Part shown: piece after piece, positions 4,630 through 61,850 of the stretch
How positions within the stretch are numbered: the stretch's first letter is position 1
Layout: every line of letters begins with the position of its first letter
Position numbers and translations under genes: made by a program
The notes under the pieces: model-generated
Told to the model about the DNA's origin: nothing
Databases searched by the model: none
What the model saw: only the letters and a program-made list of their open reading frames with translations
NCBI GenBank assembly: GCA_050124835.1
Contig: JASFEM010000004.1
Span: 3,588-67,587 of the forward strand
Direction of reading: 5' to 3'
Length of the DNA stretch: 64,000 nucleotides
DNA from: Syntrophobacterales bacterium
GTDB lineage: Bacteria; Desulfobacterota; Syntrophobacteria; BM002

Positions 4630-5526
4630 ATGGTCTCAAGGAAAAAACGGACAAAACATCCCGAAGATCGACACCCCTTCTTCGATCAGCTGGAACAGCT
4701 TTGGCGCAACAAGACTGCAGTGGCCGGGATGGTTGCCATAACTTTTTTCGCTTTGACTGGCATTCTGGCGCCGGTCATGAGTCCCCACAACCCCATTGAT
4801 GCTTCCTTGTATGATCAGATTAAACCGCCAATCTGGTCAGAGGGGGGAAGCCTGAAGAACATTCTCGGCACCGATGACCTGGGCCGGGACATCCTTTCCC
4901 GCCTTATTTATGGCGCACGGGTATCGCTGCTCGTTGCCGTCGCCACCGTCGGAATCGGTGTTGTGTTCGGATCTTTCCTTGGTGCAATTGCCGGCTATTA
5001 CAAGGGTTTTTTGGACAATGTCATCATGCGTTTCATGGACATACTCCTGGCCTTCCCCCACATCCTCTTGGCCATTGTCATCATGGCCTATCTCGGGCCC
5101 GGGTTAACAAACGCTATGATTGCAATCGGTATAATCTATATACCTCGCTTTGCCCGTATAGTTCGGGCCTCTGTTCTGGAGGAGTGTGAGAAAGATTACG
5201 TTACCGCATCCAGGGCCGTTGGTGCGAGGGACTGGAGAATAATTTTCGTGTCCATTTTCCCTAACTGCCTTGCCCCTCTCATTGTTCAGACTACCCTTGG
5301 TTTTGCATCTGCGATTCTAGATGCCGCAGCCCTAGGTTTTCTGGGGCTTGGCGCCCAACCACCCACACCCGAGTGGGGCGCTATGATTGCCATGGGACGG
5401 TCCCACATCCTTAGGGCCTGGTGGGTGATGACCTTCCCCGGCATAGCTATCCTGCTTGCGGTTCTGGGATTCAACCTCTTTGGCGATGGTCTCAGGGATG
5501 CTTTGGACCCGAGGCTTAGGGATTAA
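4630..5526 (+). CDS. ABC transporter permease (DppC/OppC family)
   Basis: 298 aa with an N-terminal OppC-type region and TM helices. It is adjacent to the first permease. Confidence 0.8.
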   Translation: MVSRKKRTKHPEDRHPFFDQLEQLWRNKTAVAGMVAITFFALTGILAPVMSPHNPIDASLYDQIKPPIWSEGGSLKNILGTDDLGRDILSRLIYGARVSLLVAVATVGIGVVFGSFLGAIAGYYKGFLDNVIMRFMDILLAFPHILLAIVIMAYLGPGLTNAMIAIGIIYIPRFARIVRASVLEECEKDYVTASRAVGARDWRIIFVSIFPNCLAPLIVQTTLGFASAILDAAALGFLGLGAQPPTPEWGAMIAMGRSHILRAWWVMTFPGIAILLAVLGFNLFGDGLRDALDPRLRD

Positions 5527-5558
5527 ATTGAGTGTAAACTGGCCTGGGGCTTTGCCCC

Positions 5559-5677
5559 GATTGGAATATTGGAACAATGGAATACTGGAATGATGGATCA
5601 CAAGGGAAAAACATTAATATGATTCTTTGTAGTTTTGTCACCCAAGATTCCATGATTCCAACATTCCACTATTCCAA
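5559..5677. repeat. inverted pair of 8-nt tandem arrays (NNNTGGAA)x4, spacer, (TTCCANNN)x4, inside the ABC operon between the second permease and the first ATPase
   Basis: Forward array TATTGGAA CAATGGAA TACTGGAA TGATGG at 5559-5596. Its reverse complement TTCCATGA TTCCAACA TTCCACTA TTCCAA lies at 5648-5677. A short GGGGC-TTT-GCCCC hairpin sits just upstream. Confidence 0.75.
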
Positions 5678-5811
5678 ACGCAGCGCAATTAGAAGCGTCG
5701 TAAAAAAGACTCAAACCTCATTAAATTGTCGTGTTTCAGATACGTTTACGATGAATAAACTATTATTAATAGCGTTCAATTGCGCATTATCGCGCAATTG
5801 AGGGTCTACAA

Positions 5812-6792
5812 ATGAGCGACAATCACAACTTACTGGAAATAGAAAATCTGCGTACCTATTTCTATGTCCGTGGTCACGTTGCTAAAGCCGTTGATGACGT
5901 CGATCTGACCATCGCATCAGGTCAGACCCTCGGATTGGTAGGTGAATCCGGTTGTGGTAAGAGTGTCACCGCCCATTCCATCATCGGTCTTATCCCCGAC
6001 CCACCTGGCAAGATAGTGGGCGGCAGGATCCTCTTTGAAGGTGCAGATCTGCTCGGACTACCTGAAACAAAAATGAGAAAGATACGGGGTAATCAAATTT
6101 CCATGATTTTCCAGGAACCCATGACCTCGCTAAACCCAGTCTATTCTGTAGGCGACCAGGTAGCAGAGGTTATAAGGCTTCACCAGAACTTGTCCCGAAG
6201 CGAAATTCGCAACCGAGTTATCGAGATTTTCCGATTGGTGGGTATCCCCGCAGCTGAAAAGCGTATCAAAAACTATCCTCACCAGATGAGTGGCGGTATG
6301 CGCCAGCGGGTGATGATCGCCATGGCCCTGGCATGCAACCCCAAACTGATGATCGCCGATGAGCCCACAACCGCTTTAGATGTGACCATTCAAGCGCAAA
6401 TCTTGGATCTGATGAACAAATTGAAACAAGAAACTGGGGCTGCTATCCTATTCATTACGCACGACCTTGGTGTGATCGCCGAAATGGCCCAGCATGTGGC
6501 AGTGATGTACGCCGGCAAGGTCATGGAGTACGCTGAAGTGAAAACCCTCTTTGCTGAGGCCAAACACCCTTACACAGTAGGACTGTTGCAGTCTATCCCG
6601 GTTGTCGGGCGGGGCCGTCCGGACCGAAGGCTCAATGCCATCGCCGGCGTGGTGCCCTCCCTGCTCAACCTCCCCCCAGGCTGTTTGTTTAGTGACCGGT
6701 GTCAGGATGTTTTTCCTGACTGCCGTACTAGTGAGCCTCAGATGTACCAGGTTGGTGACAACCACTTCGCCCGGTGTTTGAAATATGTTTGA
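5812..6792 (+). CDS. ABC transporter ATP-binding protein (DppD/OppD family)
   Basis: Walker A GESGCGKS, signature MSGGMRQR, Walker [13 protein letters not shown] and a C-terminal oligopeptide-transporter extension are present. Confidence 0.85.
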
Positions 6793-19046: not shown

Positions 19047-19050
19047 GAGA

Positions 19051-19083
19051 GATTTGAGATTGCAGATTGCAGATTGCGGAGTT
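19051..19083. repeat. heptamer tandem array (AGATTGC)x4 in the znuC-znuB intergenic spacer
   Basis: The sequence reads AGATTTG AGATTGC AGATTGC AGATTGC GG. Confidence 0.8.
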
Positions 19084-30918: not shown

Positions 30919-31020
30919 GGTTATACCGGCCCAATGAATGGATCGGCTTATAGAACCTGATAAATTTAGGCAATTTCAGAGAAGGTGTTTCGCATGTTTT
31001 GGAAAACGGTTATAAACTTT

Positions 31021-31222
31021 GCTCCGCAACTGCTATTGAGGGCTGAGTCATTCCCTCCGCTTACGCTCAGTCTGCTACCTCGCGGGGGGAAGTCCTTCGG
31101 AGCGGAGGCAGAGGCAGCCTGAGCTGCGGATGTGCCAGCCTTTGCTGTTTTGCTTGGGTAGAGTTGTCTCCTTTAAAAGACAAAGGCTGGCCACATACGC
31201 CGCTTCGGGAATATGCCAGCCC
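31021..31222 (-). repeat. copy C (reverse orientation) of an approximately 200-bp dispersed element with terminal inverted repeats
   Basis: Reverse complement aligns to 44346-44552 over both ends (CTCCGC..TTGAGGGCTGAG.CATTCCC ... GGGAATATGCCAGCCC). This copy carries an internal 11-bp-stem hairpin GCCAGCCTTTG...CAAAGGCTGGC. Confidence 0.7.
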
Positions 31223-31330
31223 ACATCTATACGGAGTTAAGTACATAGGCGTTTTCTAAATATACGGCCCCGCTATTATCTTAGCGGTGTGGAATGAAGT
31301 GGCTGCAACATTGGGGTAAGGAGGAAAACC

Positions 31331-31531
31331 ATGCATATTTGTAATCAGTGTGAGAGAAGATTCGCTGAGAGTAAACCTAATATGATCGTTTGTAGCGGTA
31401 AGGAGATCTGTTTTTTCTGCAGTGCAAGCTGTAGGGATGAATGGATGTTCCCTAAGTTATTGCTTGAATGGGTGCGCACCACTGTTCCAAATAGCGAGTT
31501 GGATCGAGCGCTGCAACCATTAAAATCGTGA
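31331..31531 (+). CDS. small TRASH-domain (C-X2-C-X22-C-X3-C) metal-binding protein
   Basis: 66 aa with Cys4, Cys7, Cys30 and Cys34 in TRASH/YHS spacing. A strong AAGGAGG RBS lies 7 nt upstream. Confidence 0.55.
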   Translation: MHICNQCERRFAESKPNMIVCSGKEICFFCSASCRDEWMFPKLLLEWVRTTVPNSELDRALQPLKS

Positions 31532-31544
31532 AGAATAAAGGGAC

Positions 31545-31583
31545 ACGCCTTGGGCTGCCCCCCCAAGGGGGCTTTAGGCGTCT
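31545..31583 (+). terminator. rho-independent terminator-like nested hairpin after the TRASH gene
   Basis: ACGCCTTGGGCTGCCCCCCCAAGGGGGCTTTAGGCGT followed by CTTT. Confidence 0.45.
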
Positions 31584-31630
31584 TTCCTGCACACGGTAGT
31601 CAGTTGGAGTAATGGAGCCCAACGACTTTA

Positions 31631-31738
31631 GATTTTAGAATGCAGATTTAAGATTTAAGAGCTTAGGACCTCATAGTAAGGAAAGCATGTAACCTCAATC
31701 TGGAATCTGCAATCTGAAGTCTGCAATCTGCAATCCTT
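31631..31738. repeat. composite element: forward heptamer array (AGATTNN)x4-5, 34-nt spacer, reverse array (CAATCTG)x6
   Basis: Forward AGATTTT AGAATGC AGATTTA AGATTTA at 31631-31663. Reverse CAATCTG GAATCTG CAATCTG AAGTCTG CAATCTG CAATCC at 31698-31738. It shares the left flank GTTGGAGTAATGGAG with the copy at 32684. Confidence 0.8.
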
Positions 31739-32248
31739 TAGGTCATCACTAGGGCGGTAATCGTTGACTTGTTTGAGCTCTAGTCATGACCCTTCCGCAT
31801 TACCAAGTCTCCGCCTTCCGCAGTGCCTCTTCTATCTCCTCGATCATCTTAAATCCATGGATCAATCCGTTCTCCGTTCACTTAAACGCCCTGCGCATTG
31901 CTGAAAATAGGAAAACCCCACCTCTGCGGCTCCATGCAGAGGTGGGGCGAATCCAGGGAGGTTTCAATAGGATAGAGTGTAAACGGGGAAAATTTATACC
32001 CTACCCGTCTGATAGTATAACCTGAAAATAAGGCAGAGGGAATATGGTGGTCCCGGAGTAAGCAAAAATGGAAGATTGATGCCCCATGAGTCCAAGTAGG
32101 TTAGCCTTTTCGGATAAAAACGGATCCCAAAAGAATCGCCACTAGTAAAAACTATCAAACGGAGTGAGAACAGGAGAATGAGGCTTCTTTACCTACTATT
32201 CTATGTAGTATATGGTTGTAAGAAAACGAAAGAGAGGAGGATACCGTT

Positions 32249-32584
32249 TTGGCATGGACCATCGACGATGCAGTTTCAGATAAGAATCTTAGAGATGCCA
32301 AGATTCATCTTCAAGAGGTGTCTTTTCGCCTCGGCGACCTTACTCCCAAAATTCGGATAAGACTTTTTAGATACCCAGGAGACAAAGAAGTCTACTTTGA
32401 GCAAAGCCACTTCATTCAAACACCCGGTCAAGAAAGTGTATTTTTTCCGGCGATGAAATCTGATAATAGTGAAGCCTATGCGTTGACCCATGCTGTTGAG
32501 GGTCTGACTCACACTTACGAAGCTGCCGTGGAACTGGGGCACGAGCCCTCTGACGTTTGGTTGGTGACTAATCCAGACTTCTGA
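32249..32584 (+). CDS. hypothetical protein
   Basis: 111-aa ORF with reasonable codon usage and no recognisable motifs. It lies between two repeat composites. Confidence 0.3.
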   Translation: MAWTIDDAVSDKNLRDAKIHLQEVSFRLGDLTPKIRIRLFRYPGDKEVYFEQSHFIQTPGQESVFFPAMKSDNSEAYALTHAVEGLTHTYEAAVELGHEPSDVWLVTNPDF

Positions 32585-32683
32585 GCAAAGAATCCAGAAC
32601 AGGGACCTTTCTTTGAGCTGCGTCCAGAGCTAGTCTTTCCTTGGGGCGAGAGTCTGTTGGTGTAATGGAGTAAGGATCATTTC

Positions 32684-32763
32684 AGATTTTAGAATGCAGA
32701 TTGCAGATTTTTTTAACGAATTAAAAACAGCAACTTTAAAACAAAATCTGAAATCTACAATCC
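32684..32763. repeat. second copy of the composite element: forward (AGATTNN)x4, AT-rich spacer, reverse (AAATCTR)x3
   Basis: AGATTTT AGAATGC AGATTGC AGATTTT ... AAATCTG AAATCTA CAATCC. The flanks GTAATGGAG upstream and CAATCCT downstream are shared with 31631-31738. Confidence 0.8.
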
Positions 32764-32775
32764 TCTGAGCTTTGG

Positions 32776-32811
32776 CCTGGCCCAAAGGACCAGGTTACCG
32801 GGACGCTAATG
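32776..32811 (+). promoter_or_regulatory. conserved leader motif CCTGGCCCAAAGGACCAGGTTACCGGGAC..AATGAG, shared with 56833-56880
   Basis: About 29 of 32 nt are identical between the two loci. It contains the imperfect palindrome TGGCCC-AAA-GGACCA. Here the AATGAG includes the annotated start codon of the radical SAM gene. Confidence 0.5.
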
Positions 32812-33816
32812 AGCTCTGAGAATGACCTAAAAGAGTGCACGCTTTGTGAGCACAGGTGCGGCGTGGACCGTGTGGCTGGCGAACTGGGCGTGTGCCGCAT
32901 CGCCGGTCCCATTGTCGCATCGAGAACCCTTCATCCAGCCCCTCCGGAAAGCTATACCATCTTCGTTGCGGGATGCAACTTCAAGTGCGTAGGCTGTCAA
33001 AATTGGACCATATCCCAGTTTCCTGATAATCGGATGCCCATAGAGGGTTATGTGGATCCCAAATCCCTCGCCCAGGAATCCGTAAAAATGCTGGAATCGA
33101 CCGCTGGAATTCTTATGGGCGCCGACAGGATATTCTTCTCTGGGGGTGAACCCACAATCCATCTTCCTTTCATAGAAGAGGTTGTAAAAGAGGCCAGACG
33201 GCTCAGGCCCTCTTTGAAGGTTAATTTTGATACCAATGGCTTTATGACGGAAGAATCTCTCAAAAGAATCTTGAATTTCACCACCTCCATGACTTTTGAC
33301 ATCAAAGCCTTCTATAACGACACCATGAGGGCTATTACCGGGGCCCCGGTTGAACCTGTCCTGAGAAATGCAGAAATAGTAGCTAGAACTGCCAGTGAAA
33401 AGCTGTGGGAATATAGAATAGTCGCAATACCCGAGGTAAACGAGGATGATATTGAACCTCTCTGCCGTTTCCTCGCCTCCATATCTAAAAATCTTCCTGT
33501 CTGTTTTCTCTCTTTCAGACCAAACTATGTTATGGATGAACACCCCGGGGCCACGCGGGAACTCATGAGGCAGTGCGTTGAGCAGGCCAGGCTTGCTGGT
33601 TTAAGAAATGTTACCTATGCCGGTACAACGAATATTCCGGGAAAGGTAGGAGTCCTCCAGAGAAAGGTGGAGGGGGATTATAGCAGAAGAGGGGCCAAGA
33701 TGGCCGCGTCTTACGCTCTTTCAAAAGGCTGTAATACACACCCCAGAGATTGCTCTAATTGTCCGTCTATGAGTACGTGCCCACTCAAGAAGTATTTACC
33801 CCTCAGGAGTTCCTAA
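32809..33816 (+). CDS. radical SAM enzyme (PFL-activase / AmmeMemoRadiSam-like)
   Basis: N-terminal Cys cluster CTLCEHRCGV...GVC, followed by the canonical CNFKCVGCQNW (CxxxCxxC) motif and a GGEPT glycine-rich SAM motif. Confidence 0.65.
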   Translation: MSSENDLKECTLCEHRCGVDRVAGELGVCRIAGPIVASRTLHPAPPESYTIFVAGCNFKCVGCQNWTISQFPDNRMPIEGYVDPKSLAQESVKMLESTAGILMGADRIFFSGGEPTIHLPFIEEVVKEARRLRPSLKVNFDTNGFMTEESLKRILNFTTSMTFDIKAFYNDTMRAITGAPVEPVLRNAEIVARTASEKLWEYRIVAIPEVNEDDIEPLCRFLASISKNLPVCFLSFRPNYVMDEHPGATRELMRQCVEQARLAGLRNVTYAGTTNIPGKVGVLQRKVEGDYSRRGAKMAASYALSKGCNTHPRDCSNCPSMSTCPLKKYLPLRSS

Positions 33817-56151: not shown

Positions 56152-56766
56152 AAACGGTGCCTCGGGGGGAAAACCCCACCTTGCTTTTTAAAGGATTCGG
56201 TTTGCGGTTCCCCTTGGGAACCATACTAACAGTTAATTCTTAGTGATGTAACTCCCGGCAAAACTTTTGACTCCGTGTTGCATTCTTCCAACACCTGAGG
56301 TGATTACCCAACATTTTTTCACCCGGCCTTGAGTGCAAGCTAGACGGCACCAAGTAGACTAAGTCATTAAAAAATCTCAATAATTTTCCAAAAACAGTAA
56401 TTGGCATGTTTCTTGTTTTAGGAGCAGGGTCGTTTATTGGCTTCTACCAGTATGGGTTTGGATTGAAACGAAAGGAAATGCAGATGAAGACTGACCTGCA
56501 ACATATATTGAATCCTTTGAAACTATGGAGCCGATTTGGTGGCAATTTCACCCAAGTCTTTAAGCTATACGAAACCTACTGCTGGAAACCTTTCTTGAGG
56601 AGATGGCTCAGCAAAGACTTGAAGGCTTAGGGTCAATTTGTGAATAACGTCCATAACATAGGAGTAGAGAATCCAGGTCCAGATAACTTGACTTTGAGCT
56701 GCCCCAAGGGGAAGGCACAGGGCTCAAGGTACCTGCTAAAATGAATCTTGAATACTCTTTTCTTCC

Positions 56767-56801
56767 CTGCGCCTTACGCCTTCAGCCTTATGCCTTGAAT
56801 C
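56767..56801. repeat. heptamer tandem array (GCCTTAN)x5
   Basis: CTGCGCC TTACGCC TTCAGCC TTATGCC TTGAATC. Same family as 20133-20164. Confidence 0.7.
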
Positions 56802-56832
56802 TCTTCTACCGGCAAAGCCATTGAAACTTGAC

Positions 56833-56880
56833 CTGGCCCAAAGGACCAGGTTTCCAGGACTACAATGAGGTGAGAGTATC
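56833..56880 (+). promoter_or_regulatory. second copy of the conserved leader motif CCTGGCCCAAAGGACCAGGTTTCCAGGAC..AATGAG
   Basis: Near-identical to 32776-32811. Here the AATGAG opens a 2-codon uORF (ATG AGG TGA) 16 nt upstream of the main ATG at 56881. Confidence 0.5.
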
Positions 56881-59259
56881 ATGGCAGACTTTAGTCCGTT
56901 CGCCATTTCTTTAGGCAGGCTGGGAATAAAGGCTCTGGAGAGGCTTTCCAAGGCTTCAGTACATATCCACGGCACAGAAAACATTCCGGATGGGGTGACC
57001 ATTTTTGCGGTGAACCACTTCACCCGATTGGAAACACTGTTACTTTTCTCCGAATTCCATCGACTTACCGGTAAGCCGGTGATGTCCCTCGCCTATCACG
57101 GGTTGTTTACCGGCGTGCTCGGCGCCGTTCTTGAGAAGGTGGGTGCGGTATCCACTAAAGACCCTAATCGTTACAAGATCATCATCCGTTCCCTACTCAC
57201 TGGTGATCACTCCTGGTTGATTTTCCCGGAAGGCGTCATGGTCAAAGACAAAAAAATTATTGAGAACGGTGAATTACTCATCAATGGTGCTGAGGGCACT
57301 CTACGGCCGCCACACACTGGCGCTGCGGCCCTGGCCTTGCGCGCCGAGTTCTATCGTCAGCGAATTCTTCACTTACAACGCACCGACGCCGCGTTACTCC
57401 GACAGCAACTAGATTTTTTTGATCTCACCTCCATTGAGCAGGTGAGCGAGCAGGAGACGTTCCTGGTACCGGTCAACGTGAGCTATTATCCCATTCGTTC
57501 TCAGCAAAACGGCTTTGAAAAACTTGCCTCCTACTTGGTGAAGGATATTCCCGAACGCGCACTGGAGGAACTGCGAACCGAGGGAACCATGCTCTTGTCA
57601 GGTGTGGACATGGATATTAGTTTCGGCAAACCCTTAGACGTTAAACAATGGCTCAAGAAACCCAGTATTCAAGAAGATATCGTCACCCCAAACCGCATCT
57701 CACCCAAGCAGGTGCTCCCCTCCAGACCTCTGATGCGACGGATTGCTAAAGACTTGACCGAGGAGGTTATGACCTCCATTTACCGCAATACCATGGTCAA
57801 TTACGACCACCTGGCCGGTTACATCTTGAAGTATTATCCCGGCCAATGTCTGAGCTTTTCTGATTTGGCCGAGCGAGTTTACCTTGCTGCGGAGATGGCA
57901 TCCCAAATGAAGTCAATTCGGTTCCACCCTGCCCTGCATCAAGATCAGAATGGCCACTTTTGGGGCCAATTCCAACACAAATTGGCTGATTTTCTCCAGA
58001 TGGCACAGAAAAGCGGCGTGGTGGAGATAGTAGGAGATACCATACACCAGAAAAAACTGAAGACAATAAAACCTTTCAATTTCCACACTATCCGGAGTGA
58101 AAACCCCTTTCAGGTTATTCTAAATGAGGTGGAATTTCTCCGTCCCCTCACCAGGCGGTTACGTCGCATCGCCTGGTATCCCAGACGGCTTAATCAGCTA
58201 CGGTTGAAAGGTCATTCCAGCCGTTTGTCTCAATTGAAATTCGCCACCGACAACAACGGTTCGAAGCGCGTTCAGTCAAGCGGCGCTCCACGTTTTCGGG
58301 TTTTGCCCAAGCTCTCGGCTCTAAACGGGACGTTCAAGCTTGCTCATCTCTCTGACCTGCATTTGACATCCCCCAACGACTTCAGGACGCAGGAATTGCT
58401 AAATAAGCGGGCGTACGGGTATCTGAGTTGGCGGTTGCGGCGGCGTGCTGAGCACAGTGGCGAGGTGCTTGAGGCTCTGCTCCGTGACCTCAAATTTACC
58501 AAACCCGATCACATCGTCATCACGGGCGACCTGACTCATCTAAGTTTGCCCAGTGAGTTTCAAGAAGTTGAACAATGGCTGCAATCAATGGGGGCGCCCT
58601 CCCAGGTTACCATAATACCAGGAAACCACGACGCTTATGTCAATACCGCCTGGGACCAGACCTTTGTCCTCTGGAAAGACTACATGACATCTGATGCAGC
58701 CTACCTTGATAACGGGTCGGACGCAAATTTGCAGACCACCTTTCCCAGCTTGCGGGTACGGGGTAAAACCGCCCTAATCGGAGTCTCCTCGGCCCGACCC
58801 ACCGCACCATTTCTTGCCGTCGGCACTATTGGGCAAGCACAGCTGCACAAGCTGGAAAAGATTCTGGAGGAGACGGGGCGGCAGGGTTTATTCAGGGTGG
58901 TTCTCATTCACCATCCACCCGGACCGAACACCGTTAGCTGGCGCAAGAGGCTTACGGATGGCAAGGCTTTCCGTTCGGTGTTGGCGCGATACGGTGCAGA
59001 GTTGGTCCTACACGGCCACGCGCATCGCAGTGCCATGTCAGAACTTGAGACGTCGGCGGGCTCGGTTCCTTCCATCGGCGTCCCTTCCGCATCATCCCTA
59101 GGTCGGAACCCCTGGCGCCGGGCTCGATACCATATCTACGAATTATCTCGAAACGGCAATGACTGGAGGGTGCAACTCTCAGAGCGCGGCTATTCGGTGT
59201 CGGAAGATCGTTTTATTGCAGATGGTGAAAAACAGCTGACCCTGCCACGCACTGTATGA
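56881..59259 (+). CDS. bifunctional-looking protein: N-terminal PlsC-type acyltransferase domain plus C-terminal calcineurin-like metallophosphoesterase domain
   Basis: N-terminal block NHFTRLET (HX4D/E-like) with FPEG. C-terminal GDLTH, GNHD and GHAHR metallophosphoesterase motifs. The ORF is 792 aa. Confidence 0.55.
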   Translation: MADFSPFAISLGRLGIKALERLSKASVHIHGTENIPDGVTIFAVNHFTRLETLLLFSEFHRLTGKPVMSLAYHGLFTGVLGAVLEKVGAVSTKDPNRYKIIIRSLLTGDHSWLIFPEGVMVKDKKIIENGELLINGAEGTLRPPHTGAAALALRAEFYRQRILHLQRTDAALLRQQLDFFDLTSIEQVSEQETFLVPVNVSYYPIRSQQNGFEKLASYLVKDIPERALEELRTEGTMLLSGVDMDISFGKPLDVKQWLKKPSIQEDIVTPNRISPKQVLPSRPLMRRIAKDLTEEVMTSIYRNTMVNYDHLAGYILKYYPGQCLSFSDLAERVYLAAEMASQMKSIRFHPALHQDQNGHFWGQFQHKLADFLQMAQKSGVVEIVGDTIHQKKLKTIKPFNFHTIRSENPFQVILNEVEFLRPLTRRLRRIAWYPRRLNQLRLKGHSSRLSQLKFATDNNGSKRVQSSGAPRFRVLPKLSALNGTFKLAHLSDLHLTSPNDFRTQELLNKRAYGYLSWRLRRRAEHSGEVLEALLRDLKFTKPDHIVITGDLTHLSLPSEFQEVEQWLQSMGAPSQVTIIPGNHDAYVNTAWDQTFVLWKDYMTSDAAYLDNGSDANLQTTFPSLRVRGKTALIGVSSARPTAPFLAVGTIGQAQLHKLEKILEETGRQGLFRVVLIHHPPGPNTVSWRKRLTDGKAFRSVLARYGAELVLHGHAHRSAMSELETSAGSVPSIGVPSASSLGRNPWRRARYHIYELSRNGNDWRVQLSERGYSVSEDRFIADGEKQLTLPRTV

Positions 59260-61786: not shown

Positions 61787-61825
61787 AGTAAAGATTAGAG
61801 GACTTATCTGTCCCCATAGGGGTTT

Positions 61826-61850
61826 CGGATTTTAGATTGCAGATTTTTCT
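61826..61850. repeat. heptamer array (AGATTNN)x3, same family as 19051 and 20671
   Basis: GGATTTT AGATTGC AGATTTT, 20 nt upstream of the next gene. Confidence 0.65.

Follow-up and report, generated by a model that had tools for sequence, protein, structure and literature searches.

A sequence shared by two unrelated genes in a Syntrophobacterales genome is the end of a small gene-less repeat dispersed in Desulfobacterota

The cyanobacterial STRRs are intergenic tandem arrays of 7-nt units, with a unit that varies by lineage, and Correia, ERIC, Nezha and Chunjie are examples of MITEs. Among the palindromic repeats, GTAG-tagged sequences occur as singletons and as head-to-tail dimers, and a GTAG family of REPs has been listed for Desulfatibacillum alkenivorans (PMC3733652). 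For IS608 it is known that TnpA binds hairpins on one strand and that four guide nucleotides at the 5' foot of the hairpin base-pair with the cleavage sites; of these sites, TTAC lies outside the element at a distance of 19 nt 5' of its left hairpin, and TCAA follows the right hairpin at a distance of 10 nt (PMC3201880, PMC5934647). Here we compare with these systems a repeat whose end lies in front of two unrelated genes.

The window, i.e. the whole stretch of 64,000 nt that was analysed, contains the 21-mer CCTGGCCCAAAGGACCAGGTT exactly twice, at 32776-32796 and at 56832-56852, both times on the + strand. Two matches were found in none of 100 dinucleotide-preserving shuffles. The preliminary description had pointed out a nearly identical sequence at these two sites, and it is real. 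The similarity spans 38 nt, of which 33 are identical, and ends with AATGAG (32808-32813 in copy 1, 56864-56869 in copy 2). The leader was thus described too long at 50 nt, as positions 56870-56880 are not common to both copies, and the second copy starts at 56832 instead of 56833. The 6-3-6 palindrome noticed within it exists as well and is better given as a hairpin whose 8-bp stem encloses a 3-nt loop and has a C.A mismatch between positions 6 and 14. Heptamer arrays ahead of both copies were likewise recovered by Tandem Repeats Finder (ATTGCAG x4.4 at 32679-32709, CGCCTTA x3.9 at 56770-56796). Pfam agreed that the downstream genes are unrelated, assigning Radical_SAM to the gene behind copy 1 and a fusion of Acyltransferase and Metallophos to the gene behind copy 2. 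About 190 nt upstream of each motif copy there is a second common block, AGAATCCAG...CTTTGAGCTGC, at 32589-32621 and 56668-56702, respectively.

The motif is by no means restricted to the two sites of the window, nor do its occurrences go back to one duplicated block. Species-representative genomes were scanned for the exact 19-mer, which gives a lower bound, and it was found in at least 119 contigs, nearly all of them from Desulfobacterales or Thermodesulfobacteriota MAGs and often several per genome. The genomes are of the sulfate-reducer type, and the MAG labels of almost all listed matches are Desulfobacterales, Desulfobacteraceae, Desulfococcaceae and Thermodesulfobacteriota. In 48 of the 119 listed loci (40%) the 19-mer is situated at most 350 nt from a contig end, a pattern typical for repeats at which assemblies break. 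For the ends of REPs or insertion sequences, which normally diverge together with their enzyme, it is unusual that a 19-mer stays unchanged in many species.

The anatomy of the family was derived from about 70 left ends and 88 right ends. A full element measures about 210-420 bp, and where both ends are present on one contig its two hairpins are 167-364 nt apart. It starts with the 10-nt tag A-GTAAAGAAT, which is followed by an imperfect hairpin (8-bp stem, 3-nt loop, a C.A or T.G wobble), by CTTTGG and by a GC hairpin with a T-run. The middle is formed by a long imperfect palindrome, the arms of which are complementary tandem heptamers (7-9-mers) with a unit differing by lineage. After this come GGCAGAGCC, about 10 nt and CTCTGA, then the hairpin of the left end repeated in direct orientation, and finally a 19-nt tail, TTTT-N8-AAATAAA. 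The flanks of the hairpin accordingly fall into two classes: left ends read A-GTAAAGAAT, hairpin, CTTTGGTTTGCCCCTGAAAGGGGC and T-run, and right ends read GGCAGAGCC, about 10 nt, CTCTGA, hairpin and TTTTTCAGGGCAAAATAAA. The canonical right hairpin is followed by TTTTT. A tag GTAA or GTAG stands 3-5 nt 5' of the stem, and not contiguous with it, in 71 left or solo ends; the 12 solo units among the listed loci consist of tag, one hairpin and tail.

Conservation sets in and breaks off abruptly: information content rises above zero only within an interval that opens 10 nt ahead of the left hairpin and closes 19 nt past the right one. When copies from the same genome are compared (four genomes), the inner 60 nt of the right end are 86-96% identical, and the 60-nt outside flanks of same-genome copies show background similarity (about 0.55). 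Between genomes the inside of the element is 63-82% identical. Subfamilies with unrelated interiors still have conserved ends in common. The two copies in the window belong to different subfamilies that share only their ends; therefore the ends are the constrained part. What had been taken for a leader is the right hairpin and tail of a small repeat without genes, whose interior is formed by the heptamer arrays. With high confidence the motif can be called a terminal module of a repeat that is dispersed and non-autonomous.

In our limited literature collection we found no description of the family, neither for the sequence itself nor among repeats of Desulfobacterales. In Rfam there was no match in the window at gathering thresholds, and an intact element gave only chance-level matches far below the family thresholds, by which a known RNA family was ruled out. 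A plasmid or phage origin was also ruled out, as no plasmid matched the element and one viral contig only carried it. Leaving aside the GTAG family of D. alkenivorans, the Desulfobacterota family is apparently undescribed.

The closest parallels are found in IS200/IS605 elements with their gene-less derivatives, the PATEs (palindrome-associated transposable elements), and in REP/RAYT repeats. As in the former, imperfect hairpins are located subterminally at both ends, in direct orientation and on one strand, short conserved motifs lie at unequal distances outside the hairpins, and terminal inverted repeats and target duplications are missing. The nucleotides at the hairpin foot co-vary with the terminal motifs, in a manner that may recall the guides and cleavage sites of IS608. 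On the other hand, no tnpA/tnpB partner with the ends of the element was found, the interior is a heptamer palindrome and not the remnant of an insertion sequence, and the 19-mer is identical across many species. The distances differ too, as the conserved outer stretches comprise at most 10 nt on the left and at most 19 nt on the right, whereas IS608 cleaves 19 nt 5' and 10 nt 3'.

With REPs, BIMEs and REPINs and their RAYTs the family has in common a short GC-rich imperfect palindrome with a 5' GTAA or GTAG tag that is extragenic, multi-copy and present as singletons and pairs. In contrast to the REPs of E. coli there are 3-5 nt between tag and stem; pairs are arranged head-to-tail and not inverted as in REPINs and most BIMEs; and the 170-360 nt of the spacer form a structured palindrome of their own. 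A RAYT-like pseudogene is present near one copy (locus L005), but its relatives are not flanked by the hairpin of the element. The likeness to MITEs and STRRs is one of description and not of compared sequences. Classical MITEs are also gene-less intergenic sequences of about 200-400 bp with strong secondary structure that donate stop codons, start codons and terminators; however, they are defined by terminal inverted repeats and target-site duplications, and the element has neither. Unlike in STRRs, the heptamer arrays form two complementary palindrome arms boxed by conserved hairpin ends. The element represents a new family within a known kind of small bacterial repeats; the regulatory reading of the motif is wrong.

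The window contains five copies or fragments of the element, all on the + strand, and a small heptamer patch at 19050-19080 (Table 1). Among neighbouring copies at the listed loci orientation is shared 7:2, a ratio from draft contigs that carry no replication information, and the GC skew of the window is about zero and uninformative on the replication strand.

Table 1. Copies and remnants of the repeat in the window
Feature	Position	Strand	Description
Copy 1, ATTGCAG-heptamer subfamily	32585..32813	+	From tag GCAAAGAAT to AATGAG; fits the family anatomy
Copy 1, left end	32585..32621	+	Tag GCAAAGAAT (32585-32593), decayed hairpin CCAGAACAGGGACC, CTTTGAGCTGC (32611-32621)
Copy 1, interior palindrome	32679..32765	+	ATTGCAG array (32679-32709) and complementary arm ...AAAATCTGAAATCTACAATCC
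Copy 1, right hairpin	32776..32794	+	CCTGGCCCAAAGGACCAGG, core of the shared motif
Copy 1, 19-nt tail	32795..32813	+	TTACCGGGACGCTAATGAG; ATG 32809-32811 is the predicted start of the radical SAM gene 32809-33816
Copy 2, CGCCTTA-heptamer subfamily	56663..56869	+	From tag AGTAGAGAAT to AATGAG; intact relative of the same subfamily in locus L017
Copy 2, setting			Between a conserved 74-aa ORF (56406-56630) and the acyltransferase-phosphoesterase gene (56881-59259)
Copy 2, left end	56663..56712	+	Tag AGTAGAGAAT, half-decayed hairpin CCAGGTCCAGATAACTTGA, CTTTGAGCTGC, short GC hairpin CCCCAAGGGG
Copy 2, array and inner motif	56770..56819	+	CGCCTTA array (56770-56796), conserved inner motif GGCAAAGCC (56811-56819)
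Copy 2, right hairpin	56832..56850	+	CCTGGCCCAAAGGACCAGG
Copy 2, 19-nt tail	56851..56869	+	TTTCCAGGACTACAATGAG; ATG AGG TGA (56865-56873) is a 2-codon ORF
Third copy, decayed, subfamily of copy 1	31528..31745	+	GC hairpin, CAGATTT/CAATCTG heptamer arms; without right hairpin
Remnant of a CGCCTTA-type copy	31868..31912	+	About 45 nt; intact at the orthologous site of locus L122 (255-463)
Fourth copy, truncated	61787..61849	+	Left part only: AGTAAAGATT, GC hairpin CCCCATAGGGG, start of the CAGATT arm

The left end of copy 1 can be aligned with the canonical AGTAAAGAAT-hairpin-CTTTGG..., though its left hairpin no longer pairs; its interior arms contain a perfect complement of 12 bp, atttcagatttt/aaaatctgaaat. 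For copy 2 the intact left end in L017, AGTAAAGAAT-CCAGGCCCAAAGGACCTGG-CTTTGAGCTGCCC, served as comparison, and its complementary arm GGCACAGGGCTCAAGG is located at about 56713-56729. The tag of the third copy, GTGAAGAAT, overlaps the TGA stop codon of a 66-aa ORF, and AGTAAAGATT of the fourth copy lies directly 3' of a TAA stop codon. The window copies are old, partly decayed and placed exactly between genes. Of the two hairpins resembling those of IS200/IS605, only the right one survives in them: in all three hairpin-bearing copies examined in this lineage (the two of the window and a second copy in L122) the left hairpin is decayed and the right one intact. The surviving right hairpin could have a role at the level of the host.

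Orthologous loci of relatives allow the history of both copies to be followed. L122 carries copy 1 at the orthologous position, 96% identical and longer by a single 14-nt repeat unit. The radical SAM protein of L122 is 86% identical to that of the window, and on the DNA level the radical SAM gene and the sequence further upstream are also about 86% identical. In contrast, the neighbouring 111-aa gene is 96% identical, and 92% at third codon positions. The hairpin and tail are conserved no better than the rest of copy 1. This pattern looks like a recombination tract comprising copy 1 and the 111-aa gene and not like selection on the element. In a more distant relative (L120/L121, 79% protein identity) there is an unrelated 124-nt spacer, and the radical SAM protein is three residues longer at the N-terminus.

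The terminal AATGAG had been proposed to provide the start codon of one gene and a 2-codon upstream ORF in front of the other, and both proposals hold. By alignment with orthologous proteins, the ATG at 32809 is the only start in the window lineage that preserves the conserved CxxCxxxC region in the Cys-rich N-terminus of the radical SAM protein; since no other start does so, the repeat terminus is now the predicted source of its start codon. In copy 2 the 2-codon ORF is out of frame with the gene at 56881, and its GAGGTGA overlaps the likely ribosome-binding site of that gene.

The allele of copy 2 is also found in L127 and L128. In L124, L129 and L130 (94% protein identity) the copy is reduced to 38 nt; the hairpin is gone and AATGAGGTGAGAGTATCATG, which is the ribosome-binding region and start of the acyltransferase-phosphoesterase gene, is kept unchanged. 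A reading of L124 as an empty site, with AATGAG as host target DNA, was rejected, as the 38-nt spacer derives from the inner right part of the element by alignment; L124, L129 and L130 are therefore deletion remnants. Likewise, positions 31868-31912 of the window, considered as an empty site in comparison with L122, proved by alignment to be a deletion remnant. A clean pair of filled and empty sites was thus not obtained, both apparent empty sites being remnants. Judged from these alignments, the element decays by deletion, and the start region of the acyltransferase-phosphoesterase gene appears to work without the hairpin. In L125 and L126 the 74-aa ORF and the acyltransferase-phosphoesterase gene are only 4 nt apart, and from this it follows that copy 2 sits inside a formerly tightly coupled pair.

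The preliminary description had proposed a mobile promoter or leader module or a shared regulon. The neighbours of the copies are diverse and stand in both orientations. Among the listed loci the next downstream gene is co-oriented in 56 cases and opposed in 41 (n = 97). All-against-all clustering of 1,549 ORFs from these loci yielded no family that tracks the element but housekeeping families only, the largest clusters including ABC transporters, aminotransferases, aldehyde:ferredoxin oxidoreductases, response regulators and acyl-CoA dehydrogenases. A shared regulon does not agree with co-orientation in only 56 of 97 cases and with unrelated housekeeping neighbours. Prediction of sigma-70-like promoters likewise gave nothing, either for the window copies or for an intact copy, which speaks against a promoter or leader; a sigma-54 or sigma-70 promoter within the motif was rejected by eye, the GG/GC spacing being a misfit, and no promoter-like site was found.

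Two further findings are at odds with a leader. At its other end the element has this hairpin too, adjoining the stop codons of upstream genes, and L124, L129 and L130 have no hairpin upstream of the acyltransferase-phosphoesterase gene and still an unchanged AATGAGGTGAGAGTATCATG. What stands of the proposal is the mobile module, in the form of a dispersed multi-copy repeat of many genomes. Upstream genes are co-oriented 46:22 (p = 0.005), and of 64 upstream ORFs 16 terminate precisely with the TAA of the tag, compared with 3-4 in the other frames. We regard the donation of stop and start codons as a by-product of where copies are tolerated and not as a common control signal: what the radical SAM and acyltransferase-phosphoesterase genes have in common is a resident repeat and not a regulatory signal.

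The stem of the hairpin was analysed on 39 distinct left-end hairpins, which had not been selected by the search pattern. Stem pair 3-17 is U-A in 25, G-C in 10 and A-U in one of them. Pair 6-14 is C.A in 23 and U.G in 12 hairpins, and Watson-Crick (C-G or U-A) in four. C.A and U.G have the same wobble geometry, with the pyrimidine at position 6 and the purine at position 14, and in hairpins with C-G at 6-14 the mismatch shifts to the neighbouring pair. The covariation score of the stem exceeded that of 499 of 500 shuffles and collapsed in slid registers. The palindrome had been taken as a candidate site for a dimeric regulator; the one wobble-type mismatch (C.A or T.G) that is always present in the stem favours a folded single strand instead. 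As the stem is required to be imperfect and has the same polarity at both ends, the comparison of hairpins points to recognition of a folded single strand and not of a symmetric duplex operator.

The intact element folds better than shuffled sequences (z = -3.75), and the window copies do not (z = -0.4 and -1.5). Fold energies favour the - strand, in large part because C.A becomes G.U in both hairpins. The orientation and stop-codon statistics conflict with this and favour the + strand as the active one, and the choice of a strand from fold energy was set aside on account of this clash. A CsrA-type GGA loop was ruled out, as a common variant of the left hairpin has GGG, and base pairing between the right tail and the left GC hairpin (TTTTGCCCCTG with CAGGGCAAAA) was dropped, since by eye it was apparent in one subfamily only.

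How could such a repeat have spread? The element may be a gene-less passenger, similar to PATEs or REPs, that was multiplied in Desulfobacterota by an enzyme acting in trans. Such an enzyme would recognise the folded hairpins on one DNA strand, and candidates are HUH/Y1 transposases of the IS200/IS605-TnpA or RAYT type. We consider it the best explanation overall, and a somewhat probable one, that the motif is the end of a repeat moved in trans, most likely by a Y1-type enzyme; the Y1 single-strand mechanism as such is a tentative step, to which we would give slightly less than even credence.

The nucleotides flanking the hairpins are of interest here. The conserved terminal motifs are GTAA or GTAG on the left and AATAAA or AATGAG on the right. 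In 85 copies TTTT after the right hairpin is accompanied by AATA; TTTC is accompanied by AATG in three copies and in copy 1 of the window, the ortholog of which also has TTTC. At the left hairpin GTAA is combined with T in 64 copies and GTAG with C in nine, with eight exceptions. By analogy these covariations between hairpin foot and terminus are suggestive of the guide and cleavage logic of IS608, though each may reflect one or two subfamily events only and can be read on either strand. The statistics of upstream orientation and stop codons speak for GTAA on the + strand as target.

Matching 3-6-mers at the boundaries, as expected for a target duplication, were found in 0-1 of 32 units compared with 0-0.7 expected by chance. 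TAAA as target-site duplication was rejected, since the left and right motifs do not co-vary (GTAG tags still occur with AATAAA tails) and the flanks mismatch. Conventional terminal inverted repeats are absent, the polarity of loop and wobble showing that the ends are direct.

Neither a transposase beside the copies nor a cognate tnpA/tnpB element was found in the 119 listed loci (764 kb) or in the window. A tblastn search with approximate Y1 transposase queries returned only two pseudogene fragments, both in L005. In the flanks of 80 metagenome relatives of this RAYT-like gene (244 kb) the hairpin of the element did not occur, and the L005 pseudogene was discarded as a lead to a Y1 partner and its neighbourhood treated as a coincidence. 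A much more far-reaching picture would be that of hairpin-guided single-strand DNA elements with programmable guide-like ends, in which the palindrome is kept for a single-stranded intermediate, the termini are recruited again and again as gene punctuation, on one side through a stop codon and a bidirectional terminator and on the other, in this lineage, through a start codon, and the right hairpin is kept by the host after the death of the element; as a whole this is speculative and improbable.

We considered next that the same repeat is moved by other machinery, namely by a DDE transposase acting on duplex ends or by recombination between copies. Owing to the outermost 5 nt of the hairpin (CCTGG...CCAGG), the ends are also 14/19 identical when inverted, a Y1 partner did not turn up at the listed loci or via the L005 relatives, and the solo units and deletion remnants speak for frequent recombination or deletion between copies and within units. 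For the DDE route, however, one would expect a target-site duplication, which is missing, and a DDE transposase recurring near the listed copies, which was not seen; loop and wobble position have the same polarity at both ends, making these direct and not inverted, and the always imperfect stem suggests a folded strand. We judge this alternative to be unlikely.

Alternatively, the element could be a functional RNA or transcription module under selection, either a portable gene punctuation, with a stop codon and a bidirectional terminator on the left and a hairpin followed by a U-run on the right, or a processed small RNA; in a variant of this reading the right hairpin in front of the window genes is retained for stability, processing or translation. 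It would fit that terminator-like sites are predicted in an intact copy, consisting of the GC hairpin with TGTTTTAC on the + strand and the left hairpin with ATTCTTTACT on the - strand, and that the canonical right hairpin precedes a run of five T. The excess of co-oriented upstream genes, the ORFs ending at the TAA of the tag and the perfect right hairpins next to decayed left ones in the window copies would be in line with it, as would C.A and U.G, which are isosteric wobble pairs frequent in RNA. Yet no Rfam family matches, and in the window copies, which fold like shuffled sequences, no terminator-like site is predicted and only 2-3 T follow the hairpin. The interior is free to differ completely between subfamilies. 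In comparison with L122 the hairpin and tail stand out in no way, the 111-aa gene being equally conserved even at third positions, and close relatives do without the hairpin upstream of the acyltransferase-phosphoesterase gene. Taken together this makes selection on an RNA module quite improbable.

Direct hairpins at both ends could also represent paired recombination sites, i.e. recombinase cores of the res/dif or integron attC type that excise or invert the interior. The solo units resemble deletion products, and the unit is often found just 3' of a stop codon, as attC sites are. However, homologous recombination across 19-21 identical bases explains the solo units equally well, the copies are scattered one by one rather than lined up as cassettes, integrases and recombinases do not recur near the listed copies, and the consensus lacks attC-type RYYYAAC/GTTRRRY cores. 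Typical tyrosine-recombinase cores are longer than a 19-nt site with 7-8-nt arms. We regard this possibility as very improbable. Finally, that both genes belong to one regulon under a dimeric DNA-binding regulator, for which the near-palindrome 14 and 30 nt upstream of the two start codons and in the same orientation would be the operator, deserves hardly any credence, given that copies are present in at least 119 contigs in all contexts, in both orientations and also at gene 3' ends, that their neighbours are diverse, that stem positions 6 and 14 consistently break the symmetry, and that the site is lost in relatives with no change to the start region.

For the two genes of the window it follows that a common upstream sequence of 38 nt is no ground for calling them co-regulated. 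Beyond this locus, the repeat accounts for contig breaks in many Desulfobacterota MAGs. The family is widespread, lies outside Rfam and has an unusual build, with two direct hairpins around a palindrome of tandem heptamers. If the cognate enzyme of a hairpin-bearing passenger such as we propose is found, the family could extend the small set of studied single-strand transposition systems. The radical SAM gene, with its predicted start at 32809, is a concrete example of a start codon that comes from the end of a repeat; stop codons are often supplied by termini of the family, and the acyltransferase-phosphoesterase gene shows the element placed inside a two-gene unit that is tightly coupled in relatives.

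The 111-aa hypothetical gene and element copy 1 are together 96% identical to a locus in another genome, L122 (positions 803-1376), and at the third codon positions of this gene the identity is 92%. For the radical SAM gene, and likewise for the 400 nt further upstream, identity to the same locus is about 86%. From sequence comparison, the block of approximately 570 bp formed by the 111-aa gene and copy 1 looks like a recent recombination tract. The strong GC hairpin directly adjoining the repeat remnant is also conserved in L122 (469-500).

After the sigma-70 gene lies a GC-rich and apparently noncoding region of about 400 nt. It contains self-complementary stretches, e.g., gctcagtctgctacctcgcgggggg...cagcctgagctgcgg, and had no Rfam match at gathering thresholds. 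Next comes a 66-aa ORF, whose TGA stop shares bases with the tag of the third, decayed copy of the repeat. Elsewhere in the window, a lone patch of CAGATTG heptamers (gagatttgagattgcagattgcagattgcgg) was seen in a short intergenic space; it has neither hairpins nor tags.

Positions of the features in the window
Feature	Position	Description	Pfam
CAGATTG patch	19050-19080	Isolated heptamers
GC-rich region	30919-31330	Apparently noncoding
66-aa ORF	31331-31531	Cys-rich, CNQC...CFFCSASC, zinc-ribbon-like	No match
GC hairpin	31916-31950	ccccacctctgc-ggctccat-gcagaggtgggg
111-aa gene + copy 1	32249-32813	Block shared with L122	No match (111-aa gene)
74-aa ORF	56406-56630	Upstream of acyltransferase-phosphoesterase gene; conserved in all relatives	No match

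At another locus, L005, a solo repeat unit and two neighbouring Y1-transposase pseudogene fragments (5084-5868) are separated by 440 nt. One of the fragments corresponds to a RAYT-like N-terminus with in-frame stops, the other to an IS200-like C-terminus. The hairpin was not found associated with relatives of the RAYT-like fragment.

Some element copies (L020, L045, L050, L070, and L078) carry extra GC-rich palindromic inserts, such as cgcggcgcaagcgcctgcgctgcgcg and ggcttgtccgccatagctttagcggcg, within the heptamer palindrome, which suggests that a second small repeat family is nested by insertion in these element interiors.

The small ORF preceding the acyltransferase-phosphoesterase gene is shorter (50 aa) in the related loci L125 and L126, and its end is located 4 nt from the start of the large gene. 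This short distance suggests that both genes would constitute a coupled two-gene unit, which in the window is now split by the repeat. L125, a relative with 77% identity, also harbours a decayed CGCCTTA-type copy (about 1985-2110). It precedes the small ORF by roughly 350 nt, a position different from that of copy 2 in the window.
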